Shown: one piece after another, positions 26,688-38,787 of the stretch
How the letters are laid out: every line of letters begins with the position of its first letter
Numbering within the stretch: the stretch's first letter is position 1
Assembly (NCBI GenBank): GCA_005222975.1
Contig: NJBI01000004.1
Coordinates: 32,742-96,741 of the forward strand
From: Promethearchaeota archaeon Loki_b31
Lineage (GTDB): Archaea; Asgardarchaeota; Lokiarchaeia; Sigyniarchaeales; SOKP01
Direction of reading: 5' to 3'
DNA length: 64,000 bases
Position numbers and translations under genes: made by a program
The notes under the pieces: generated by a model
Database searches by the model: none
What the model was told of the DNA's origin: nothing
The model's input: the letters and a program-made list of their open reading frames with translations, nothing else

Positions 26688-27596
26688 TTATTTATTTAAT
26701 TCTTTTCCATACTTAATCCATTTTTCAATTGTTTTAGCTCCAACTCCAGGGACATTATCTATGATATCATTTACATCACACTTAATTAAATCATCAATTG
26801 ATTTAATACCATATTTATTTAACTCATATTCGTGATTATATCCTAATCCAGGAAGATCCTTTAAGTTGTATGTAAGTTTTAAACTCTTTTCAAATTGCTT
26901 TAATTCATCTTTTGAAAAATACAAGCTTTTTACCAAATCATTAAGTTCATCGTAATCCTTTTTTATGAATTTCTTTTCTAGTTTTTTAACTTTATCTACA
27001 ATTTGCTTTTCTAAATTCGGATCTATATTAACAGGTATGGGTAATTCTTCTAAAAATATTTTTTGGATTTTTGAGAATAATTTTTTATAAGAAAACAATG
27101 TTGTATAATATAAATTCATGAATTCGGAGTTTAAAATAGCCAGTATAAGTCTAATATTATAGGATTTTTTATCTATCATCCAGATCATTTGAACGGAATC
27201 AAGAGTATAAAAGTAATCTTCCTTCTTCTCTTTCTTAGTATCTAAGGCAGCAACAAGTTTATTGCTTATACGTTTTAAAACTATTTTTTCTTGTTTAAAC
27301 CAAGAATCTTGTTTAAGATTTACTTTAGAACCCTTAGGATAAGTACTTTTACTATAATCAATGTATTTTTGATAAAAACTTGCTGCTTTCCACTTTATTC
27401 TAAACCGTTCTATATTATCAACAGCAATTAACTTTCTTATTGTAGACTTTGTGGATGTTATTGCATCTAAGGCATCTTTTTTTTTGAGATTTTCAATTCC
27501 TCTTTGTATATTTACTATAGAACTTAATTTAACTAATGTTTTTTGATTTAATTTTATAAAAATGGATGCAAATACTAAACTCGTTATATTATTCAT
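26688..27596 (-). CDS. orphan TaqI_C-like target-recognition domain fused to tandem helix-hairpin-helix motifs (no methyltransferase domain)
   Basis: LSSIVNIQRGIE ... KIVLKRISNKLVAALD ... LILAILNSEFMNLYY ... LEELPIPV follows the TRD pattern of Eco57I/TaqI-class enzymes. The C-terminus LPGLGYNHEYELNKYGIKSIDDL and VPGVGAKTIEKWIKYG forms two HhH motifs. Confidence 0.6.
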   Translation of the reverse strand: MNNITSLVFASIFIKLNQKTLVKLSSIVNIQRGIENLKKKDALDAITSTKSTIRKLIAVDNIERFRIKWKAASFYQKYIDYSKSTYPKGSKVNLKQDSWFKQEKIVLKRISNKLVAALDTKKEKKEDYFYTLDSVQMIWMIDKKSYNIRLILAILNSEFMNLYYTTLFSYKKLFSKIQKIFLEELPIPVNIDPNLEKQIVDKVKKLEKKFIKKDYDELNDLVKSLYFSKDELKQFEKSLKLTYNLKDLPGLGYNHEYELNKYGIKSIDDLIKCDVNDIIDNVPGVGAKTIEKWIKYGKELNK

Positions 27597-27709: not shown

Positions 27710-28816
27710 TTACAGATGTATTAATAATCTGAATTTTATTTCTTGATCTTGCTTTAGCATTTTTTCTGAAAAGTCGGACCTCATAACTTTTAGAGTTTCG
27801 AGAATCTTTTTATCGAAAATATCATGGGCAACCATTTCCATTAAATCATTTAATAATTCGTGTATAATTGTGCTATTATAATCTCGAGTGTTCCTCCTAA
27901 AATCTTCAAGAGCCGCATCTAATAATTTTAAAGGATTATGGCTGCGATCCCGACGGTCTCTAAAAGACATCACCTCATCAAACTCATGAACTATTCTTTC
28001 TAAGCGATCCCTATAATGAAATGAATGAGGATGAAAATCTAATGTAACTCTTAGGATGGGAAAGCGGTCTGTCATATTTCTGAAGTTATGTTCTATTTCT
28101 CTTAAACCATCAAAGAATCGTCGGGAAACGTCTTGAAGTCTAGGCAACCGAAATGTGATAACTTTTCGTATGAAATTAGCCATTAACTCCTTTTGTTCAA
28201 TAATTTTTAATTTGGAAGGCTCTTTCTTTAGCTCCCTCATAATTGTTCTCTGAACGTCGCCGGGATAGTTCTGGATATGTTCTGCCACTATTTCTTGCTT
28301 ATCTTTCGGTAAATCAGGAACTTGAACAAGCGTCCTCACTGGTAGTTTTATCCTGCCCTGCTCAATCTTTTTCTGAACAGAATCCTCTATTTTTAACATT
28401 TTCAGATAATTTCTTACCGTCTGGATAGACTTTGCTACTTTTGCCGCAACACGTGAAACATCTTCTCCAAGAAGTTTATAAAGTATTCTAAATGACCGCG
28501 CTTTATCCAATGGAGTTAAGCCAACTTTATGAATATCTTCCTGAAGAGATATTGCTAAAGCATCCAGATCGTCAACCTCTTCCAAGATTTTTGCTGGAAT
28601 TATCTTTCGTCTTAATGATTTAAAGGCCAATAGCCTCCTCTGACCTATGATTAACTCATAAAGTTTTTTACATTTTTTAAAAACAACAATATTTTGGAAC
28701 AAACCATATTTCTTAATACTGTTTGCCAAACCCTCTATATCCAAATCGTCCAAATTTTTTCTGCAATTAAATTCAGAAACAAAAACATGGTCTACTCTTA
28801 TATTTTTAACTTTCAT
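27710..28816 (-). CDS. ParB/Srx-like N-terminal domain protein with HTH
   Basis: LANSIKKYGLFQNIVVFKK..YELIIGQRRLLAFKSL matches ParB box I/II, with GQRR in place of GERR. An HTH lies at SRVAAKVAKSIQTVRNYLKML. The C-terminal 150 aa are unassignable. No ParA gene is nearby. Confidence 0.75.
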   Translation of the reverse strand: MKVKNIRVDHVFVSEFNCRKNLDDLDIEGLANSIKKYGLFQNIVVFKKCKKLYELIIGQRRLLAFKSLRRKIIPAKILEEVDDLDALAISLQEDIHKVGLTPLDKARSFRILYKLLGEDVSRVAAKVAKSIQTVRNYLKMLKIEDSVQKKIEQGRIKLPVRTLVQVPDLPKDKQEIVAEHIQNYPGDVQRTIMRELKKEPSKLKIIEQKELMANFIRKVITFRLPRLQDVSRRFFDGLREIEHNFRNMTDRFPILRVTLDFHPHSFHYRDRLERIVHEFDEVMSFRDRRDRSHNPLKLLDAALEDFRRNTRDYNSTIIHELLNDLMEMVAHDIFDKKILETLKVMRSDFSEKMLKQDQEIKFRLLIHL

Positions 28817-29290
28817 AATTCAAAATCACGTCAATAAGTTAGTTTTAATAATTTTATTAAGCCGGAAATTGATTAAATCTAAAATATTAAACTGAATGAG
28901 CCTAAGATAATTAGAAATAATAAACAAGAGGATTATGGGGGATATCCTAATACCAACTAATCCTTTTACCTCAAATTTCAGACCTTCATGTCGATTCTCC
29001 GACATTGTCTAAGGATCATGAAAATCAAGATGAGGAACAATAATCAAGCAATGTTGTCTGAGCAATAATGAGAATCGAAGGTAACGATAAATATTAGTTT
29101 TAGAGTGATACAAATATACTAAATCACATATATAAATTTATCGAGTTTTGCTAAAAATTTGAATAATTATAAAAGGGGTAATTTTTTTGGTAATACATAT
29201 GATAAAAATCATATTGGAAAATTTGTGTTTCAATATTATATCAATGTATATTTTTATAGTTCTTTATTTATAGTAAGTTGTGAATAATAT

Positions 29291-30112
29291 ATGGTTATTT
29301 GTCCTCGAATTAATAGAGATTGTCCAAATAGGTGTAGCACTATTATGGATACAAATGCCTTAATCCATTATATGCAATATCTTTCTGAAACTAAATATAG
29401 CCGGGAGAATTATCCCTCAGAACAAGAATTTAGAAGAAGGCATTACCATGATATACTGAATGATTTCAGGAATGTTTTTGCGGGTATAAAAGCAGATTGC
29501 TCTTTCGGAAGATTTTTTGCTTCAAATTTAGGTATTGACAAGGAGTACAAGGGAACATTTCTCGATAAGGTTAGGTTTTTAAACAATTTGTGTGCATCAT
29601 ATCAGCGAAATTTTTTGGATATTTTATTAAATGGAATAAACAGCCATAATGTTGACCGTGATGCTTTAAGAGACCTGAAAATTAAAGCGGATAATTTTAC
29701 TAGGAATCCTAATAGACGATTGTCAGAAATTGATTATCGAGATTTATCTTTTTTACTGGGAGCACTAGAAGAAATCAACCTTCATCACAATTATAAATAT
29801 TTAATTGTAACAGGTGATGACAGTTTTCGTAAATTTGTTGCTCATGTCAAAGCCCAACGACAAATATCCTTAGCAGGTCAAGTTTACCTGACCAGAAATG
29901 TAAATGGGATTATGCTTTTAACACACTTAACGCACCTATATAAATGCTGTCATTATGATGACCTAAGAGAATTTAGAAGATTTATGTTAAAGAAAGTGAC
30001 TGAAGACAAACCAAAAAGAGTTAAGATTAGAAAAAGAATAAAATATGAAGATTGGATTTTTGATGTATTTGAACCTGCGATAGCTGAAAAAACTAGCTTA
30101 GGTGTATGTTAA
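29291..30112 (+). CDS. hypothetical protein, PIN-like nuclease fold suspected
   Basis: IMDTNALIHY near the N-terminus resembles PIN strand 1 (DTN). EIDYRDLSFLLGALEE and YLIVTGDDSFRKF resemble the later acidic PIN motifs. The spacing is longer than in a minimal PIN domain. Confidence 0.55.
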   Translation: MVICPRINRDCPNRCSTIMDTNALIHYMQYLSETKYSRENYPSEQEFRRRHYHDILNDFRNVFAGIKADCSFGRFFASNLGIDKEYKGTFLDKVRFLNNLCASYQRNFLDILLNGINSHNVDRDALRDLKIKADNFTRNPNRRLSEIDYRDLSFLLGALEEINLHHNYKYLIVTGDDSFRKFVAHVKAQRQISLAGQVYLTRNVNGIMLLTHLTHLYKCCHYDDLREFRRFMLKKVTEDKPKRVKIRKRIKYEDWIFDVFEPAIAEKTSLGVC

Positions 30113-30863
30113 AATGAGTGAGGACCCAGATAAATATCCCGAAGACCTCATGAAAATTGAAAGTACTTTCTCAGATGATTATGACAGAATGAACTTATTT
30201 CTAGAATTTTTTGAGAGAATTAAAGAGCTATTATTCAGTCGACCAGAAATCAGCATAAGAGAAATCGATTTTTTAAAAAATAAACCTGAGACTACAGAAA
30301 TTTTACCATTTACATATATTATTGAGATAAATCAAAAGGAATATCTGTTAATATTTAATGATAATTCTGAGCCAACCATAAATGAGATGGAGCTTAAAGA
30401 TTATCAGAGTTTATTTACTAATAGTAAAGGGCAAGATGGAATCATTATAATTTGGAACGATGATTCTTTATCATCTTTTAAATTGTATAAAAATACAATT
30501 TATTCTGACCTTCAAGAGATTCTAAAATACTTTGAAGTCGGAACCTTCGCTAAATTATTAGATGACGAAATAAATTTTCGACACCGATTTATAGATCTGA
30601 TAGAAAAGCAAATTAAAAAAATTTCGAAATCCCAAGCGCCAGATCCAGCAGAACAATTTAGTTCATATCTTACTGATACCTTTGAAAATTTTAAATCAAA
30701 GCGATTTCATAAAGATAAAAAAAAACAAATGCTTAAACTCAATCATTATGAAATAAATCCCTTTATTAGATTATTTTCAGATTTTATCTTAGAAAATATC
30801 GATATGGAAGAATTTGACAAGAATTTTAATGATATAATTAGTAGGGGAAATTCAAATGATTAA
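30102..30863 (+). CDS. hypothetical protein (middle gene of three-gene operon)
   Basis: The 253-aa ORF overlaps the upstream stop; an alternative ATG at 30114 lies 1 nt after that stop. Its own stop overlaps the downstream ATG. No recognisable family. Confidence 0.6.
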   Translation: MYVKMSEDPDKYPEDLMKIESTFSDDYDRMNLFLEFFERIKELLFSRPEISIREIDFLKNKPETTEILPFTYIIEINQKEYLLIFNDNSEPTINEMELKDYQSLFTNSKGQDGIIIIWNDDSLSSFKLYKNTIYSDLQEILKYFEVGTFAKLLDDEINFRHRFIDLIEKQIKKISKSQAPDPAEQFSSYLTDTFENFKSKRFHKDKKKQMLKLNHYEINPFIRLFSDFILENIDMEEFDKNFNDIISRGNSND

Positions 30864-32850
30864 AAAAATATCGATAAAAGAGTGGAAATGCCATAAAGAA
30901 TTAAATTTGGAATTTAAAAAGGGAGTTAATTTCATTATTGGATTTAATGGTATTGGGAAAACATCTACTCTAGAGGCTATTATTTATGGTTTAATTGGAA
31001 GAGTTAGAAATAGAAAAGAAGAAGAATTAAGAAGGATAGGGAGTGCTGATGATACAGAGGTAATTTTAGAGTTTGAGCATTTAGAGGAGGAATATGAAAT
31101 TACTCGGCGCTTTAATGGAAAACCGACACATAAATTAGTCAAGCAATACACGGAGGAAATACTTGAGGACGAGGAGGAGATCTTAGAACTTATACTTAAA
31201 CTTTTTAAAGCAAATCGGTCATTTTTAGAAAATATTTTATATTCTCCTGAAGGAGAATCCTATAGCTTTTTAAAGTTGGATAAAAGAAATCTAATTGATT
31301 ATTTAGAGAAAATGGTCGGAATCGGAAAAATTAATGAATTTTATAGATATGTGACAAATTTAAAAACTGATTTTGAGAAAAAGAAAAGAGAGACTAAAAC
31401 TTATATTGAAAAGTTAGAAAAGATAGAAGAACCAGAGGATTTAAGAAAAAAAGTCGATTTGCAGAGAGAAAAAAACATGGTTCTTCAAAATATTGAAAAT
31501 GTAGATGATGAAATTCTCAAAAAAGAAAAGGAGAGATCAGAATTAGCTGAGAAATATGAGAAAGATTACAGGGACCATTATACTTTTAATAAAGAATTAG
31601 AAAAACTCGAAAATATGTATAACCAGAATAAAGATTTATTTTTAGAGATGAACTTTCGAGAATTTAATCTACAAGAATTTTTATTGAGAGTAGAGAATAT
31701 TAATGAATTGATTGAACAACAACATAAGAATGTGCGTAAATATCGAGATGAGATAAGTAAAATACAACAAAAAATTGCGGAAAATAACGTTAAAACTGAA
31801 GAGAAAAAGAATATCCAAGATATAATGGATAAACTAGAACATAACCTCCTTAATGTTCCTAAAGTGGACTGCCCTATATGTAAAAAGCCGTTTACAAAAT
31901 CGGAATTCTTAGAAGTCCATAAAGATATATACAAAGACATCGAGGATTTACGAAGAGAAACTTCTCAGATCGATGAGGAGTTAAAAGATTTAAAAAAAAA
32001 AGAAATAAGTTTAAGAGAATCAGAACAATTGTTAAGAGATTTTCTAAGTTTAATAGAATCTCTGGGGAGGTTTGATCCGAGTAAAATACAAGAGATGACT
32101 GAACAGAAATCTGAGTATGAAGAGATAAAAGAAAAGATTGAATCTGAATTAAGGCAATCAAAAGATAAGAGAAAAAAGTATGAAAGTCGGGAAAGAGAAA
32201 TTCAGAAAAAAATAAGTGAAATAAAAGCTGCTGAAAAAGTAAGAGGTGCTCTAGAATATGAGAAAGAATACCAGAAAAATATAAAAGGGGGTTTAATTTG
32301 TGAATTAATCGAGGAAGTAACTAAAAAAGTTCTGGATAAACAAAGAAATGTTAGCCTAAACGAAATTAAAGATGAGATCCAGAACATTTGGCAAATAATT
32401 TTTCCCTCAGAGAATAGACGATTATTCTTTACTGATGATTACCTACCATATTTTGAAAAAAATGGAGAAAATATCTCCTATAAAAATGCCAGCGGAGGAG
32501 AAAAAATGATCTTATTAGTTCTTATAAAGACTGTGCTTGCTAAAAAATATACAGACCTTCCTTTCTTATTCTTTGATGAACCATTAGAGCACTTGAATTT
32601 TGAAAACCGAATTAACCTTATTGATTATTTAACAGACATTTGTGAAAAAGGACTAATCAGCCAATTAATTATAACTACATTTGAAGAATCTCTTACAAGA
32701 AAATTTAGGAATTCAGATGAAGTTAATATAATTTCATTGTCTGAAGTGTTAAAATACGACTATGATCTTAGTACAAAGGATTCTAATAAGAAAACAAGAG
32801 CAGATGTGATAGAACTGGATGAGGAAAAAGATCCCAATAAAGAACATTAA
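30856..32850 (+). CDS. Rad50/SbcC/SMC-like ABC ATPase with coiled coil and central CxxC zinc hook
   Basis: Walker A GFNGIGKTS (aa 29-37). A heptad-rich Glu/Lys coiled coil spans about aa 170-500, with CPIC at aa 339-342 (31870-31881) near its midpoint. Signature ASGGEK and Walker B/D-loop LFFDEPLEHLN are present. The H-loop position reads QLIITTFEE, so the His appears to be missing. Confidence 0.8.
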   Translation: MIKKISIKEWKCHKELNLEFKKGVNFIIGFNGIGKTSTLEAIIYGLIGRVRNRKEEELRRIGSADDTEVILEFEHLEEEYEITRRFNGKPTHKLVKQYTEEILEDEEEILELILKLFKANRSFLENILYSPEGESYSFLKLDKRNLIDYLEKMVGIGKINEFYRYVTNLKTDFEKKKRETKTYIEKLEKIEEPEDLRKKVDLQREKNMVLQNIENVDDEILKKEKERSELAEKYEKDYRDHYTFNKELEKLENMYNQNKDLFLEMNFREFNLQEFLLRVENINELIEQQHKNVRKYRDEISKIQQKIAENNVKTEEKKNIQDIMDKLEHNLLNVPKVDCPICKKPFTKSEFLEVHKDIYKDIEDLRRETSQIDEELKDLKKKEISLRESEQLLRDFLSLIESLGRFDPSKIQEMTEQKSEYEEIKEKIESELRQSKDKRKKYESREREIQKKISEIKAAEKVRGALEYEKEYQKNIKGGLICELIEEVTKKVLDKQRNVSLNEIKDEIQNIWQIIFPSENRRLFFTDDYLPYFEKNGENISYKNASGGEKMILLVLIKTVLAKKYTDLPFLFFDEPLEHLNFENRINLIDYLTDICEKGLISQLIITTFEESLTRKFRNSDEVNIISLSEVLKYDYDLSTKDSNKKTRADVIELDEEKDPNKEH

Positions 32851-35800
32851 CATCCACCAACATAATTTTTATGCTATATTATTATTCCAAGAGTCATTAT
32901 TTAGGGGATCGAGAATCGAGAATTTCCCTAACGGAGATTATGATTCAATTTCTTTACTCTTTGAAATATTAGGAGGAAAAATAAAGTCAACTTATAAAGC
33001 AGCTTTAAATGGGTTTGCAGGCAGAATCGGTTATAATCCTTTAAATGAATTTTGCGATTTACTCATGCAAAATGACATACCGTTCTTCATCCAGGAAGAT
33101 ATGGTTTATGAAGCGCAACTATATTACGCGGGTCGAAATATGAATCTTAGACCCTATGTGTGGAACACTCTTTCTTATGATGGAGATGAATATAGTTCAA
33201 TTGCAATTATTGATACTGGCATTGATGATTCACATAGCTTCTTTACTCCGGGTTATTCAGATGCAGATTTTAATTACAAAATTGTTGGTTGGAGAGATGA
33301 AGTAAACGGATTACCTAGTCCTTATGATGACAATGGTCATGGTTCCCATTGTTCCGGAATCTCAACAGGAGAGGGTGGTCCCAATTATGACGGAACTGGG
33401 CGAACTGTTGCTACTGCTGGGTATGAGTTTGATTATACTGGCTATAATGTACCAGAACAATCAATTCTATTTAATTGGGCAAGATTTAATGTTACTGATC
33501 CTGGTTTGATAGAACTTTTCTGCGAATTTGATGATTTTACACCTGGTCTTGATGATGTTGATTTTTGGGCTTATCTTTATTATGGAGAAACTATAGTAGA
33601 TTCGTATGAAGTAAATACCGACTCTTGGTCTCAAACTCTTTCGTACACAGCAACAAGTAGCTCTCTTGGACTCTATTCTTTCAGATTTTTTATGTTTCTT
33701 ATAGATAATACTGCTGACGGTTATGTAAGTGATTTCAATATTAGATTTAGAAGTGAAATGCATTGGCCTTTTAGCCCTAATCTTTTTGGAAGCGGAGATG
33801 CATGGAAAGGAGTAGCTCCTTATGCACATTTAGTAGGAGTTAAAGTACTTGATGAACATGGTAGTGGGTGGAGTTCAGATATAATTAATGGAATAAATTG
33901 GGTAATAACAAACAAGAATGTTTATAACATTACTACTATGTCTTTAAGTCTTGGTGGTGGAGCAGGTGATACAGCATTTATTAGTGCCGTAAATAATGCC
34001 GTCGAAAATGGAATTGTTACGGTTGTTTCAGCCGGAAATGATGGTCCAGGAGGAAATTTTATCGGATCTCCTGGAGATGCCGATAACGTAATAACTGTGG
34101 CAGCAATGAATATCTATGACGAAACAACTGATTATAGTAGTCAAGGTGGATTATCATATACGGGCAATACTGTTAAACCTGATATAACTGCTCCCGGTGG
34201 AAGTCTCTACAATGTGCAGATGTTTTCTACTGATACTAACGATAACGATGCTGAAGGAGGATATCCAACTGATGGATATGCAAATGATATGGACGGTATG
34301 CAAGGAACTTCAATGTCTGCTCCGGCTGTTGCAGGAGCCGCAAATTTATTAATTGAAGCTATGGGTGGCCATCAAAGTTGGGGTTATACTGGTACAGAAG
34401 CCAAACGAGTAAAAGCATTATTATTAATGTCAGCTACCGAAACCTATCCATTATTAAGAGAAACGTATGGTGGCACATACTCTCCGGAGTTAAATCGTGG
34501 TGGAAAAGATGTTCATGAAGGGTACGGAAGACTTAATGTTGATATAGCAATAGAGGCATATACCCAAGAATTAACTCTAGGTTCCACACAAAGTGCTTGG
34601 ATCGCAAGTAGTTTTGATAATCCGTTTAGCAAGCATGGACTCGGTTGTTACATAAACCTTAATGTTGGAGAAAGTTACACTTTTACCTTGGATGTTCCAG
34701 TTGGGGCAGATTTCGATTTACATCTATACTCAAATAATCCTTCTTCAATAGGGGAACCTATTATGGTCGCTTCAAGTACTTCCAGTGGCTTAGGAACGGA
34801 CGAAATAATATCTTATACAGCAACAGAAACAGGAAAGTATTATTTAGTCGCTAAAGCCATTTCTGGCGAAGGAAGCGCAATTATAGAATATCCAATTATG
34901 GATCATGAGTTGAGTGTGTCATTAGAAGTTCCAACTAATCCAGATATTTATCAGCCTTACATCATAAATGCGACAGTAACTAATACTGGCAGTAACGTTG
35001 AAACAAATGTTGATTTGTTTCTATATCTTGATAGTGTGCTTGTTAATTCAACAACGATTTCAACACTTCCAGTTGGTGCGAGTGATACTATTAATTTTCC
35101 ATGGATTCCAACTGAATTTAGAACCTATAATTTCACTGCTTATGCTCCACCTGTACCTGGTGAGCCATTTATTGATAATAATATCGCAACTAAGTTAATA
35201 ACAATTGACTATCTTGAAAATTATATTATGACGATAGATTATGGATATAATTGGATCGAAGCTTCAGGTGGGACAGAACTTTTCTTAAGTGATGATGGTT
35301 ATGCTACAATAGCATTACCATTTAGTTTTTCATTCTATGGTGTAGCTTACTCAACAATTTATTTAGGTGCCAATGGATATCTTAGTTTCACTGATTCAAC
35401 TCCTAGTGATTATTCTAACGATCCAATTCCTTCAGGAGATTTAGATCATTATTACTTAATTGCACCATTTTGGGATGATCTATACCCACCCGCTGCTACA
35501 TCACATGTCTATGTACAATCATTTGGAAGCTATTGGGTTGCAGAATGGCTAGATATAAATCATTATAATGGAGGTCTAGTTGGATCCTTTGAGGTAATAT
35601 TAAATGAGACAGGGGAAATTTTCTTCAATTATGACTATATAAGCTATACAGGTGGTGGATATACATGCGGGTTAAATTTAGGCGTAGATACAGATTATTA
35701 TAATTCATATCAAGGCTTAAACGATTTAACTGATGATTTTTCAATATTATTTACATATGAGTCATTTGATCATGATTTAAGCGTTTCTTTAGATACTCCT

Positions 35801-38331: not shown

Positions 38332-38787
38332 ATGCCCAAAAAATCCGAGCCGTTTACGTGGATTGTTAAGGAAAAAATGGCAGCAAGTTGGTGGCCTGAT
38401 CCGCCGGTTTTTGAAAAGTACAAAAAAGAAGGAATCTCAGTCGTAATCAATTGTTCGGAATTTGATAACAGAAAAAATATCCCTAACGGATTTAAATATT
38501 ATCATATAAATGTTCCTGATTATGGATTACCAACAGAAAAGCAAATAGAAGATTTTCTGGTAATTTGTGAGAAACATAGACAAAATAATGAATCAATCGT
38601 TGTTCATTGTGTTGCGGGGTGTGGGAGAACCGGGCAATTTATTGTAGCATGGGCTGCCAATAATGGATATATACCCGAACATATGGATCCCGTAAGATGG
38701 ATACGAAAATATAGACCATGCAGTCTTGAGACTAAAGAACAAATGAATTTTGCGCGGAGAATAGCAAAAAAATATCAAAAAAACTGA
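38332..38787 (+). CDS. dual-specificity / PTP-superfamily protein phosphatase
   Basis: Active-site loop VVHCVAGCGRTGQF (HCx5R[ST]). The upstream acidic loop NVPDYGLP is compatible with a general-acid Asp. Confidence 0.85.
   Translation: MPKKSEPFTWIVKEKMAASWWPDPPVFEKYKKEGISVVINCSEFDNRKNIPNGFKYYHINVPDYGLPTEKQIEDFLVICEKHRQNNESIVVHCVAGCGRTGQFIVAWAANNGYIPEHMDPVRWIRKYRPCSLETKEQMNFARRIAKKYQKN

Follow-up and report, generated by a model that had tools for sequence, protein, structure and literature searches.

Lamassu, also described as ABC-3C or DdmABC, is an operon of three genes in the order LmuA, LmuC and LmuB. Its ATPase, LmuB, is a Rad50-like protein of approximately 600-650 amino acids (aa) with short coiled coils and zero to two CxxC motifs. 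It is a slow, deviant enzyme whose Walker B motif reads hhhhD[Q/S/T/E] in the short type. The folded LmuB dimer, together with LmuC, holds the effector LmuA near the hook; the sensing of a DNA end then frees LmuA, which oligomerises into an active nuclease. The family has been proposed to derive from SbcCD. Its two smaller components are highly variable, with 12 types of LmuA C-terminal domain (CTD) and 8 MC types of LmuC, a diversity that defeats sequence methods, and a validated LmuC domain has been likened to a CDI DNase. Lamassu has been reported in only seven archaeal genomes, belonging to Euryarchaeota and Thaumarchaeota with no Asgard representative, and the main text of a published survey of Asgard defence systems names no Lamassu, SMC or Rad50. 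Here we describe a three-gene cassette, A-B-C, from a 64-kb stretch of the genome of Promethearchaeota archaeon Loki_b31 (contig NJBI01000004.1, positions 32,742 to 96,741; hereafter the window, in whose numbering coordinates are given unless another locus is named). At a rough probability of 55%, we read this cassette as a self-contained defence module of sensor, adaptor and effector that resembles Lamassu and may have arisen independently from archaeal Rad50.

Listing the open reading frames (ORFs) of the window places the operon at 29291-32850, with all three genes on the + strand. Gene A (29291-30112, +) encodes 273 aa and is predicted to be a PIN-like nuclease effector that contains a helical insertion and conserved cysteines and ends in a helical tail. 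Gene B (30114-30863, +) encodes 249 aa from its ATG, with a predicted N-terminal alpha/beta part and a helical C-terminal half, and is a predicted non-catalytic adaptor. Gene C (30856-32850, +) encodes a short Rad50-type zinc-hook ABC ATPase of 664 aa, the predicted DNA sensor. The stop codon of A (TAA, 30110-30112) is separated by a gap of 1 nt from the ATG of B at 30114. A GTG at 30102, which would lengthen B to 253 aa, is the mechanical ORF start; several B homologs begin with MSEDP at the position of the ATG, and therefore we regard A and B as parted by a single base. The stop codon of B (TAA, 30861-30863) overlaps the gene C start (ATG, 30856) by 8 nt. The original prediction, which had been made from the sequence and its ORFs, proposed that the three ORFs are translationally coupled, and these junctions are in keeping with it. 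Moreover, every motif that it had named was found and is conserved within the families (GFNGIGKTS, CPIC, SGGEK, FLFFDEPLEHLN, IITTFEE, IMDTNALIHY and LIVTGDDSF). Its observations are thus confirmed, whilst its interpretation is partly supported. A stretch immediately upstream of A (29156-29290, +) is conserved in a three-way alignment of the window with two related loci, L003 and L010, and carries TATA-like boxes, TTTTTATAG and TTTATTTATAG, approximately 20-40 bp before the A ATG. These conserved boxes make it a putative promoter region. An Rfam search and folding of the region upstream of the cassette gave no signal.

The three genes are strictly linked. Hidden Markov models built from our own alignments of A, B and C were searched across all fetched loci, and in 12/12 distinct loci containing a C-clade member together with upstream DNA, A and B were found directly upstream of C, in the same order and tightly coupled. 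The co-occurrence on which the original prediction had depended therefore holds. Two deeply divergent loci, L055 and L012, also keep the A-B-C architecture. The L055 proteins share 27% (A), 28.5% (B) and 27.5% (C) identity with those of the window, and these equal values indicate that the three genes have co-diverged; the C protein of L055 retains the CPIC hook and a His-less LIITTYEES motif. In L012, an A homolog of ~20% identity is succeeded by a weakly B-like gene (hhalign E 5e-4 over 144 columns) and then, at the contig end, by an N-terminus with a Rad50-type Walker A.

Close relatives, on the other hand, delimit what is shared. By blastn, window positions 29156-32860 are 93% identical at the nucleotide level to L010 and positions 28904-32859 are 87% identical to L003, with unrelated flanks in both cases. 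As these relatives match over the operon and a short upstream stretch only, within differing flanks, the cassette moves as a unit, and the mobile unit comprises the operon plus 135-390 bp of upstream sequence, a cassette of ~3.7-4 kb. Within the upstream part, a non-coding block of ~190 nt (28945-29135) is near-identical to L003, though the adjacent coding sequence is only 87% identical; the block is not present in L010, has no Rfam match and shows no folding signal on either strand (z about -0.1). The window contains no tRNA gene, and no convincing flanking repeats were found around the cassette.

The cassette is rare and sporadically distributed. Among 5.8 billion proteins the A family accounts for 10 clusters (90% identity), and among 1.84 billion only 30 representatives (50% identity) reach E<=0.001. 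A protein database search gave 7 clusters of the B family, whilst the C clade consists of 14 clusters with 43-92% identity, beyond which identity drops straight to 21-25%. The named carriers are Promethearchaeota (Lokiarchaeota-type Asgard) genomes, with GCA_030599585.1, GCA_019058365.1 and the JAHLWP01 genome amongst the carriers. The low G+C content of the window (about 0.32) and its giant CARDB surface proteases would accord with such an origin. A tblastn search of plasmids with C returned one irrelevant match. In one genome, GCA_019058365.1, gene A is split into two ORFs of 180 and 116 aa (L004 6346-7250; L005 328-1232). The split is probably real, since it is also present in an independent read-based assembly, and probably represents either a genuine frameshift or pseudogene, or a two-part A.

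Gene C has a full Rad50/SbcC-type head, split by a coiled coil of ~330 aa with a central zinc hook, and its Pfam matches are AAA_15, SMC_N and AAA_23. Its motifs, all on the + strand, comprise the Walker A GFNGIGKTS (30940-30966, aa 29-37), the signature SGGEK (32491-32505, aa 546-550) and the Walker B FLFFDE (32563-32580, aa 570-575), with the D-loop PLEHLN next to it. The hook CPIC (31870-31881, aa 339-342) lies at the midpoint of the coiled coil, where C339, P340 and C342 are invariant. An alignment with four genuine archaeal Rad50s showed that the hook context CP[VIL]Cxx[PR][LFM] is common to C and real Rad50s. The same comparison revealed that two catalytic loops are altered throughout the family, including the 27%-identical L055. 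The Q-loop reads SPEGE (31243-31257, +, aa 130-134), with Gln replaced by a Glu that is invariant in the clade, and the H-loop reads IITTFEE (32668-32688, +, aa 605-611), where Phe, or Tyr in L055, stands in place of His. The H-loop replacement had been suspected from the start, whereas the Q-loop change was found in addition. In the light of general knowledge of ABC ATPases, the altered loops suggest that ATP binding is kept and hydrolysis impaired.

The closest affinity of C is to Rad50. A profile of the C family searched against the PDB matched, through the N-lobe, archaeal Rad50 heads at 1e-23 to 1e-19 and, more weakly, Thermotoga Rad50 (2e-10). At E<=1 the search returned no chain bearing the name LmuB or DdmC; Lamassu structures have been deposited, but their presence in the searched copy is unconfirmed. 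The nearest relatives in a large protein database are bona fide archaeal Rad50s at 21-25% identity, and three of these outgroup proteins (P0032, P0033 and P0035) sit in Mre11-Rad50, HerA-Mre11-Rad50 or NurA-HerA-Mre11-Rad50 operons. No such partner accompanies C. With real archaeal Mre11, HerA and NurA as tblastn queries, none was found anywhere in the 64-kb window whilst positive controls worked, and none stands beside the triad in other loci, in agreement with the initial description of C as a short Rad50-like ATPase outside the canonical repair operon. Curated models fit it poorly: the best NCBIfam Rad50 model reached 106 bits against a cut-off of 700, the Archaea-specific SMC-related protein model (ASRP, NF045487) 66 bits against 300, and the DndD model 17 bits against 246. 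It had been proposed that clustering of C with bona fide Rad50 would speak against a novel system. The affinity itself is real, but identity is only 21-25%, and C forms a tight clade of its own with altered Q- and H-loops. On these alignments we regard C as a distinct, short, hook-bearing offshoot of the Rad50 superfamily whose nearest kin is archaeal Rad50.

A match to Lamassu was obtained for C, and it illustrates a pitfall. The PADLOC model of LmuB, PDLC03859, matches C over its full length with 109 bits (E 7e-32). However, three genuine, Mre11-linked archaeal Rad50s run on this model as a control reached 124-158 bits, whilst further members of the C clade reached only 66-74 bits. Because genuine Rad50s outscore C, the match shows that C belongs to the Rad50 superfamily but does not single out LmuB, and the assignment of C to LmuB on this basis was rejected. 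It follows that a lone LmuB match in an archaeon should not be called Lamassu. The PADLOC check suggested at the outset therefore gave a divided answer, with no system named from A or B, and a match for C to a model that scores real Rad50s higher. Loci with a generic Walker A from a metagenome scan were also considered as LmuB comparators and rejected, as these encode RecF-sized ATPases.

The first gene of the operon most likely encodes a PIN-like protein with insertions, as had been suggested from two of its motifs. In an alignment of 32 sequences, reaching down to 16-20% identity, the near-invariant polar residues of A are D20, E85, D151, S153, T174 and D176. Acidic residues together with a Ser/Thr are the pattern of the PIN family, and A fits this pattern because the four acids (D20/E85/D151/D176) and S153/T174 are near-invariant in PIN order. 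IMDTNALIHY (29342-29371, +, aa 18-27) would correspond to PIN strand 1 with the putative catalytic D20, whilst LIVTGDDSF (29801-29827, +, aa 171-179) contains the invariant D176 and would be the last acidic motif. Pfam, NCBIfam and PADLOC returned no significant match for the A of the window. Across its family, however, sub-threshold and co-linear matches were found to five PIN-clan Pfam families (PIN, PIN_4, PIN_6, PIN7 and NYN). In one member, PF01850 aligns over residues 21-172 and is covered from profile position 1 to 116 (of 120); the PIN_4 match covers the N-terminal DTN motif, and those to PIN7 and NYN cover the D151-D176 half. Moreover, an hhalign comparison with a reference alignment of annotated plasmid VapC toxins placed A 18-187 on VapC 2-130, so that D20, E85 and D151 fall on VapC D7, E42 and D98, IMDTNALIHY on LDTN and LIVTGDDSF on LVTNN. 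On this convergent evidence we consider it probable that A has a PIN-like fold, which would be interrupted by ~60-100 aa of helical insertion and would end in ~65 aa of helical tail.

Conserved cysteines are a further feature of A. These are C4 (29300-29302), C11 (29321-29323), C70 (29498-29500), C219-C220 (29945-29950) and C273 (30107-30109), all on the + strand. C70, C219 and C220 are near-invariant, C4 and C11 occur in most members and a C-terminal Cys in many, and their spread from one end of the protein to the other hints at a metal site, Zn or Fe-S, by which the termini would be tied to the core. Neither A nor its wider family found a meaningful match when searched as profiles against the PDB. 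A lone match to MComp1 on one A homolog (E 0.04) was treated as noise.

Gene B proved as difficult to assign as had been anticipated. No family match was found in Pfam, NCBIfam, PADLOC or PDB sequences (for Pfam and PADLOC, with the B of the window and 10 family members), and a profile of B and its wider family gave no meaningful match in the PDB, nor any chain named LmuC or DdmB. Ferritin-like matches in the helical half are weak and probably compositional. In an alignment of 13 B sequences that includes L055 and L012, the invariant positions are mostly hydrophobic, together with a GIIIxWN strand, and these diverse members have no conserved D/E/K catalytic triad. As catalytic residues are not conserved, B is best read as a non-catalytic adaptor. 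An origin of B as a C-terminal remnant of Mre11 found no support, with a probability of 0.2% by hhalign against real Mre11.

At several other loci, genes next to the cassette are of defence type. In L055 (3886-7979) the divergent triad is directly followed by a type III restriction-modification (R-M) pair, Mod and Res, consisting of an N6_N4 methylase and a ResIII/DEAD helicase. A CAP12-PCTIR TIR protein neighbours the cassette in L003, a PglZ-domain protein in L014 and L017, an integrase in L013, and nucleases of the NYN and NucS/YhcG-like types in L002. PADLOC on 89 pooled flanking proteins returned BrxP (8e-49), PDC-S02 (8e-46) and Ppl (6e-29), as well as PDC-S35, SspD, a CBASS-type cyclase, PglZ and IetA. 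Separately, a conserved gene of ~240 aa is convergent with, and just downstream of, the triad in four loci of one sub-clade (L006 3736-4455, L014 2302-3024, L016 11111-11836 and L017 7520-8242). In L014, L016 and L017 it is followed by a gene of ~210 aa and then by a PglZ-type protein (~957 aa; cut by the contig end in L016).

We infer a defence role from the architecture of the cassette and from its neighbours at some loci. The architecture was compared with that of LmuB, taken as a protein of about 600-800 aa with a short coiled coil, a Walker A, a Walker B of the form hhhhD[Q/S/T/E] or hhhhDD and 0-2 CxxC. C agrees in each respect, having 664 aa, GFNGIGKTS, FLFFDE and one mid-coil CPIC. The layout also parallels Lamassu, as originally proposed: gene order, sizes and hook agree, with the A-B-C order at all loci and components that appear to co-evolve, given their equal divergence in L055.

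Several results weigh against this interpretation. No LmuA/ABC-3C CTD was matched in 32 A-family members (Pfam/PADLOC, E<=1) and no LmuC/MC domain in 10 B-family members (Pfam E<=10; PADLOC E<=1), and the tail of A has approximately 3 predicted helices, in a low-confidence model, compared with the 5-6-helix bundle of a short LmuA CTD. The PIN assignment is likewise subject to its statistics. The best PIN-clan Pfam E-values for A (6.5e-4 to 0.01) are under the gathering scores, the hhalign comparison with VapC is non-significant (E 0.013, probability 3%), and the AlphaFold2 model is poor (pLDDT 63), with no significant Foldseek match in the PDB (best E 3.2). The AlphaFold2 model of B is poorer still (pLDDT 45), and its Foldseek matches in the PDB are non-significant (best E 0.02) and mostly to PD-(D/E)XK-fold nucleases. 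With regard to context, the pooled PADLOC matches are not mappable to single loci and the defence neighbours lack a background rate, whilst the cassette is flanked by surface proteases in the window and by housekeeping genes in L004. A search of IMG/VR viral contigs found no copy of the cassette, which counts only as an absence of support for viral carriage and is neutral with respect to defence.

These points bear on whether the cassette might be a true Lamassu, acquired from bacteria and extremely diverged, in which case B and the tail of A would be MC and CTD types that escape recognition. The cassette shares its gene order, its protein sizes, the lone CxxC and the class of its Walker B with short Lamassu, and with 12 CTD and 8 MC types a miss by sequence methods would not be surprising. 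Moreover, the CDI DNase to which an LmuC domain has been likened is of the PD-(D/E)XK-type fold, and the weak fold matches of B are mostly to nucleases of that fold. However, the LmuB model does not discriminate (Rad50s 124-158 bits, C clade 66-109), and the C profile finds archaeal Rad50 and no LmuB or DdmC in the PDB, their presence in the searched copy being unconfirmed. In addition, no CTD or MC type was recognised in the 32 A-family and 10 B-family members, and the nearest relatives of C are archaeal, not SbcC or LmuB. We therefore consider such an origin unlikely, albeit the least so of the alternatives. The cassette has not been filed as Lamassu because features of the LmuA CTD and of LmuC were not found and because the LmuB match is non-discriminating.

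A complex for DNA repair or end processing, acting on the cell's own DNA, ranks next and is again improbable. Here C would be a Rad50 paralog, A a PIN/FEN-like nuclease and B an adaptor replacing Mre11. The Rad50 kinship of C is compatible with this, as its nearest relatives are found in NurA-HerA-Mre11-Rad50 operons, profile matches of 1e-19 to 1e-23 link its N-lobe to archaeal Rad50 structures and its hook is of the Rad50 type; moreover, the PIN-like superfamily includes DNA nucleases of the FEN type. A repair function sits poorly, however, with a very rare and patchy distribution (14 clusters of C; 30 representatives of A at 50% identity), with a mobile cassette whose flanks differ at 87-93% identity and with the degeneration in C of the very loops that hydrolysis-driven repair would need. 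B has no similarity to Mre11, and R-M, PglZ, TIR or integrase genes are neighbours at several loci.

Returning to the defence module that we favour, a Lamassu-like mode of working is proposed because the cassette has the same build as Lamassu. C would dimerise through its CPxC zinc hook and would sense abnormal DNA, such as a free end or an intermediate in viral or plasmid replication. The changes of Gln to Glu in the Q-loop and of His to Phe/Tyr in the H-loop would make C a slow, switch-like ATPase and not a motor. B, itself non-catalytic, would bridge C and A, and A, a PIN-like and probably metal-stapled nuclease, would be held inactive within the complex. Once triggered, C would unleash A on nucleic acid, thus halting the invader or the infected cell. 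As to its origin, we tentatively suggest, as an idea that is at present rather doubtful, that Asgard archaea built their own Lamassu-like module by independently shortening and rewiring archaeal Rad50, and recruited a cysteine-stapled PIN-like effector and an inactive adaptor derived from a nuclease fold.

An independent shortening of Rad50 would parallel the route from SbcCD to Lamassu proposed for bacteria. If true, a truncated Rad50 sensor joined to a releasable effector would be a convergent design of immunity in a lineage related to eukaryotes, and the Rad50 repair machine might have been co-opted for immunity a second, independent time. Lamassu is among the commonest bacterial defence families, yet it has barely been reported in archaea. 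The cassette would also add a PIN-like class of effector, which is not given for Lamassu-type systems in the literature examined, and, through its Q- and H-loop changes, a second route to a slow switch of the Rad50 type. At 3.7 kb and self-contained, it is easily synthesised and tested.

The surroundings of the cassette in the window (G+C about 0.32) are of a different character. Divergent from the triad is a gene for a ParB_N and helix-turn-helix protein of 368 aa (27710-28816, -; Pfam ParB_N 3.6e-15, HTH_ParB), and beyond it lies an ORF of 302 aa (26688-27596, -) with a TaqI-like C-terminal specificity domain (TaqI_C) and a helix-hairpin-helix (HhH). The latter has no methyltransferase catalytic domain and may be what is left of a type II/IIG methylase, or else a DNA-binding protein in its own right. 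The ParB, TaqI_C and triad block cuts a run of giant secreted or surface proteins, the CARDB surface protease run (12574-38095), whose members are a C25 protein of 1817 aa, a CARDB protein of 1427 aa, a C1 papain-like protein of 854 aa and an S8 subtilase of 1758 aa. Past this run, 38332-38787 (+) encodes a small dual-specificity phosphatase, for which PF22785, a DSP-PTPase family of the 'polymorphic toxin system', is the top match (E 9e-16). The original prediction had placed the operon in an island of mobile-element-type genes; this applies to the ParB-like and TaqI_C/HhH genes upstream on the opposite strand, but not to the wider flanks with their giant CARDB surface proteases.

ParB_N proteins, of the CTPase-type ParB/Noc-like kind and mostly divergent from the triad, are neighbours in 4/11 distinct loci, namely the window, L013 (3905-4987), L016 (4212-6677) and L017 (877-3345), and in L013 a phage-type integrase is also present. 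The ParB gene lies outside the common cassette and is not beside the 93%- and 87%-identical cassettes of L010 and L003, and is not part of the mobile unit; it is possibly an accessory gene or a gene of the carrier element. These neighbours would suit a module that serves an integrated Asgard mobile element in maintenance, partition or addiction, with C as a ParB-linked, SMC-like DNA organiser or with A and B as a PIN toxin and its antitoxin under regulation by the ATPase. PIN domains are the classic toxins of VapBC systems, and the cassette is mobile. Nevertheless, the closest relatives have no ParB beside them, a ParA partner was not seen, B (250 aa) bears no DNA-binding antitoxin signature, no copy was found on IMG/VR viral contigs and, to our knowledge, no described type II toxin-antitoxin pair includes a zinc-hook ATPase of 640 aa, which leaves this as the least probable of the three alternatives.

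Identity with the Pbe/CxC-ABC or Dnd systems can be dismissed on gene composition, since these require a DndE partner and an HKD-SF2 helicase nuclease, and neither of these nor any Dnd modification gene lies beside the triad in the examined loci. What C shares with them is a weak and partial match to PbeC (50 bits) and to DndD (17 bits). RloC is reported to couple a zinc-hook Rad50-like ATPase to an RNase-type effector (PMC3458546). The cassette differs in having three separate proteins and a PIN-like effector, the two being compared by description only. RloC carries its anticodon nuclease as a fused domain within one polypeptide and lacks a middle component. The parallel to RloC drawn in the original prediction thus stands as regards a hook-bearing ATPase with an RNase-type effector, but adds little given the fused form of RloC.

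With regard to its single components, A shares with VapC the motifs hhhDTN, D-x-S/A-h-h-h-A and hhT-x-D in the same order. It differs from VapC in being double the size, in its helical insertion, conserved cysteines and C-terminal tail, and in lacking a small antitoxin whilst being operonic with an ATPase; its PIN statistics are also below threshold. With archaeal Rad50, C has the Walker A, signature, Walker B and D-loop in common, as well as the CP[VIL]C context of the hook. However, it is shorter (664 aa compared with ~780-880 aa) and only 21-25% identical, it is without the Q-loop Gln and the H-loop His, and its partners are A and B in place of Mre11, HerA and NurA.

Lastly, the cassette resembles short Lamassu in overall design. 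Both have an effector, a small middle protein and a Rad50-like ATPase in this order; both ATPases are short (664 aa for C, ~600-660 aa for LmuB), have short coiled coils and bear a single CxxC; and the Walker B of C, FLFFDE, fits the hhhhD[Q/S/T/E] of short LmuB. The catalytic loops of C are degenerate, and LmuB is likewise deviant and slow. Like Lamassu, the cassette is sporadic, mobile and, at some loci, found beside other defence genes, and the N-terminal effector domain of Lamassu is itself variable. PIN was not among the effector domains in the Lamassu literature examined, which did not cover the original ABC-3C effector list; the original prediction likewise knew of no described system that combines PIN and zinc hook. 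The differences lie in the manner in which the ATPase is weakened (Q- and H-loop changes in C, an E-to-Q change of Walker B in LmuB), in the greater proximity of C to archaeal Rad50 than to LmuB, as judged by the PDB profile and the PADLOC model, and in the Asgard archaeal hosts. On balance, we regard the cassette as a Lamassu-like variant whose ATPase perhaps came from archaeal Rad50.

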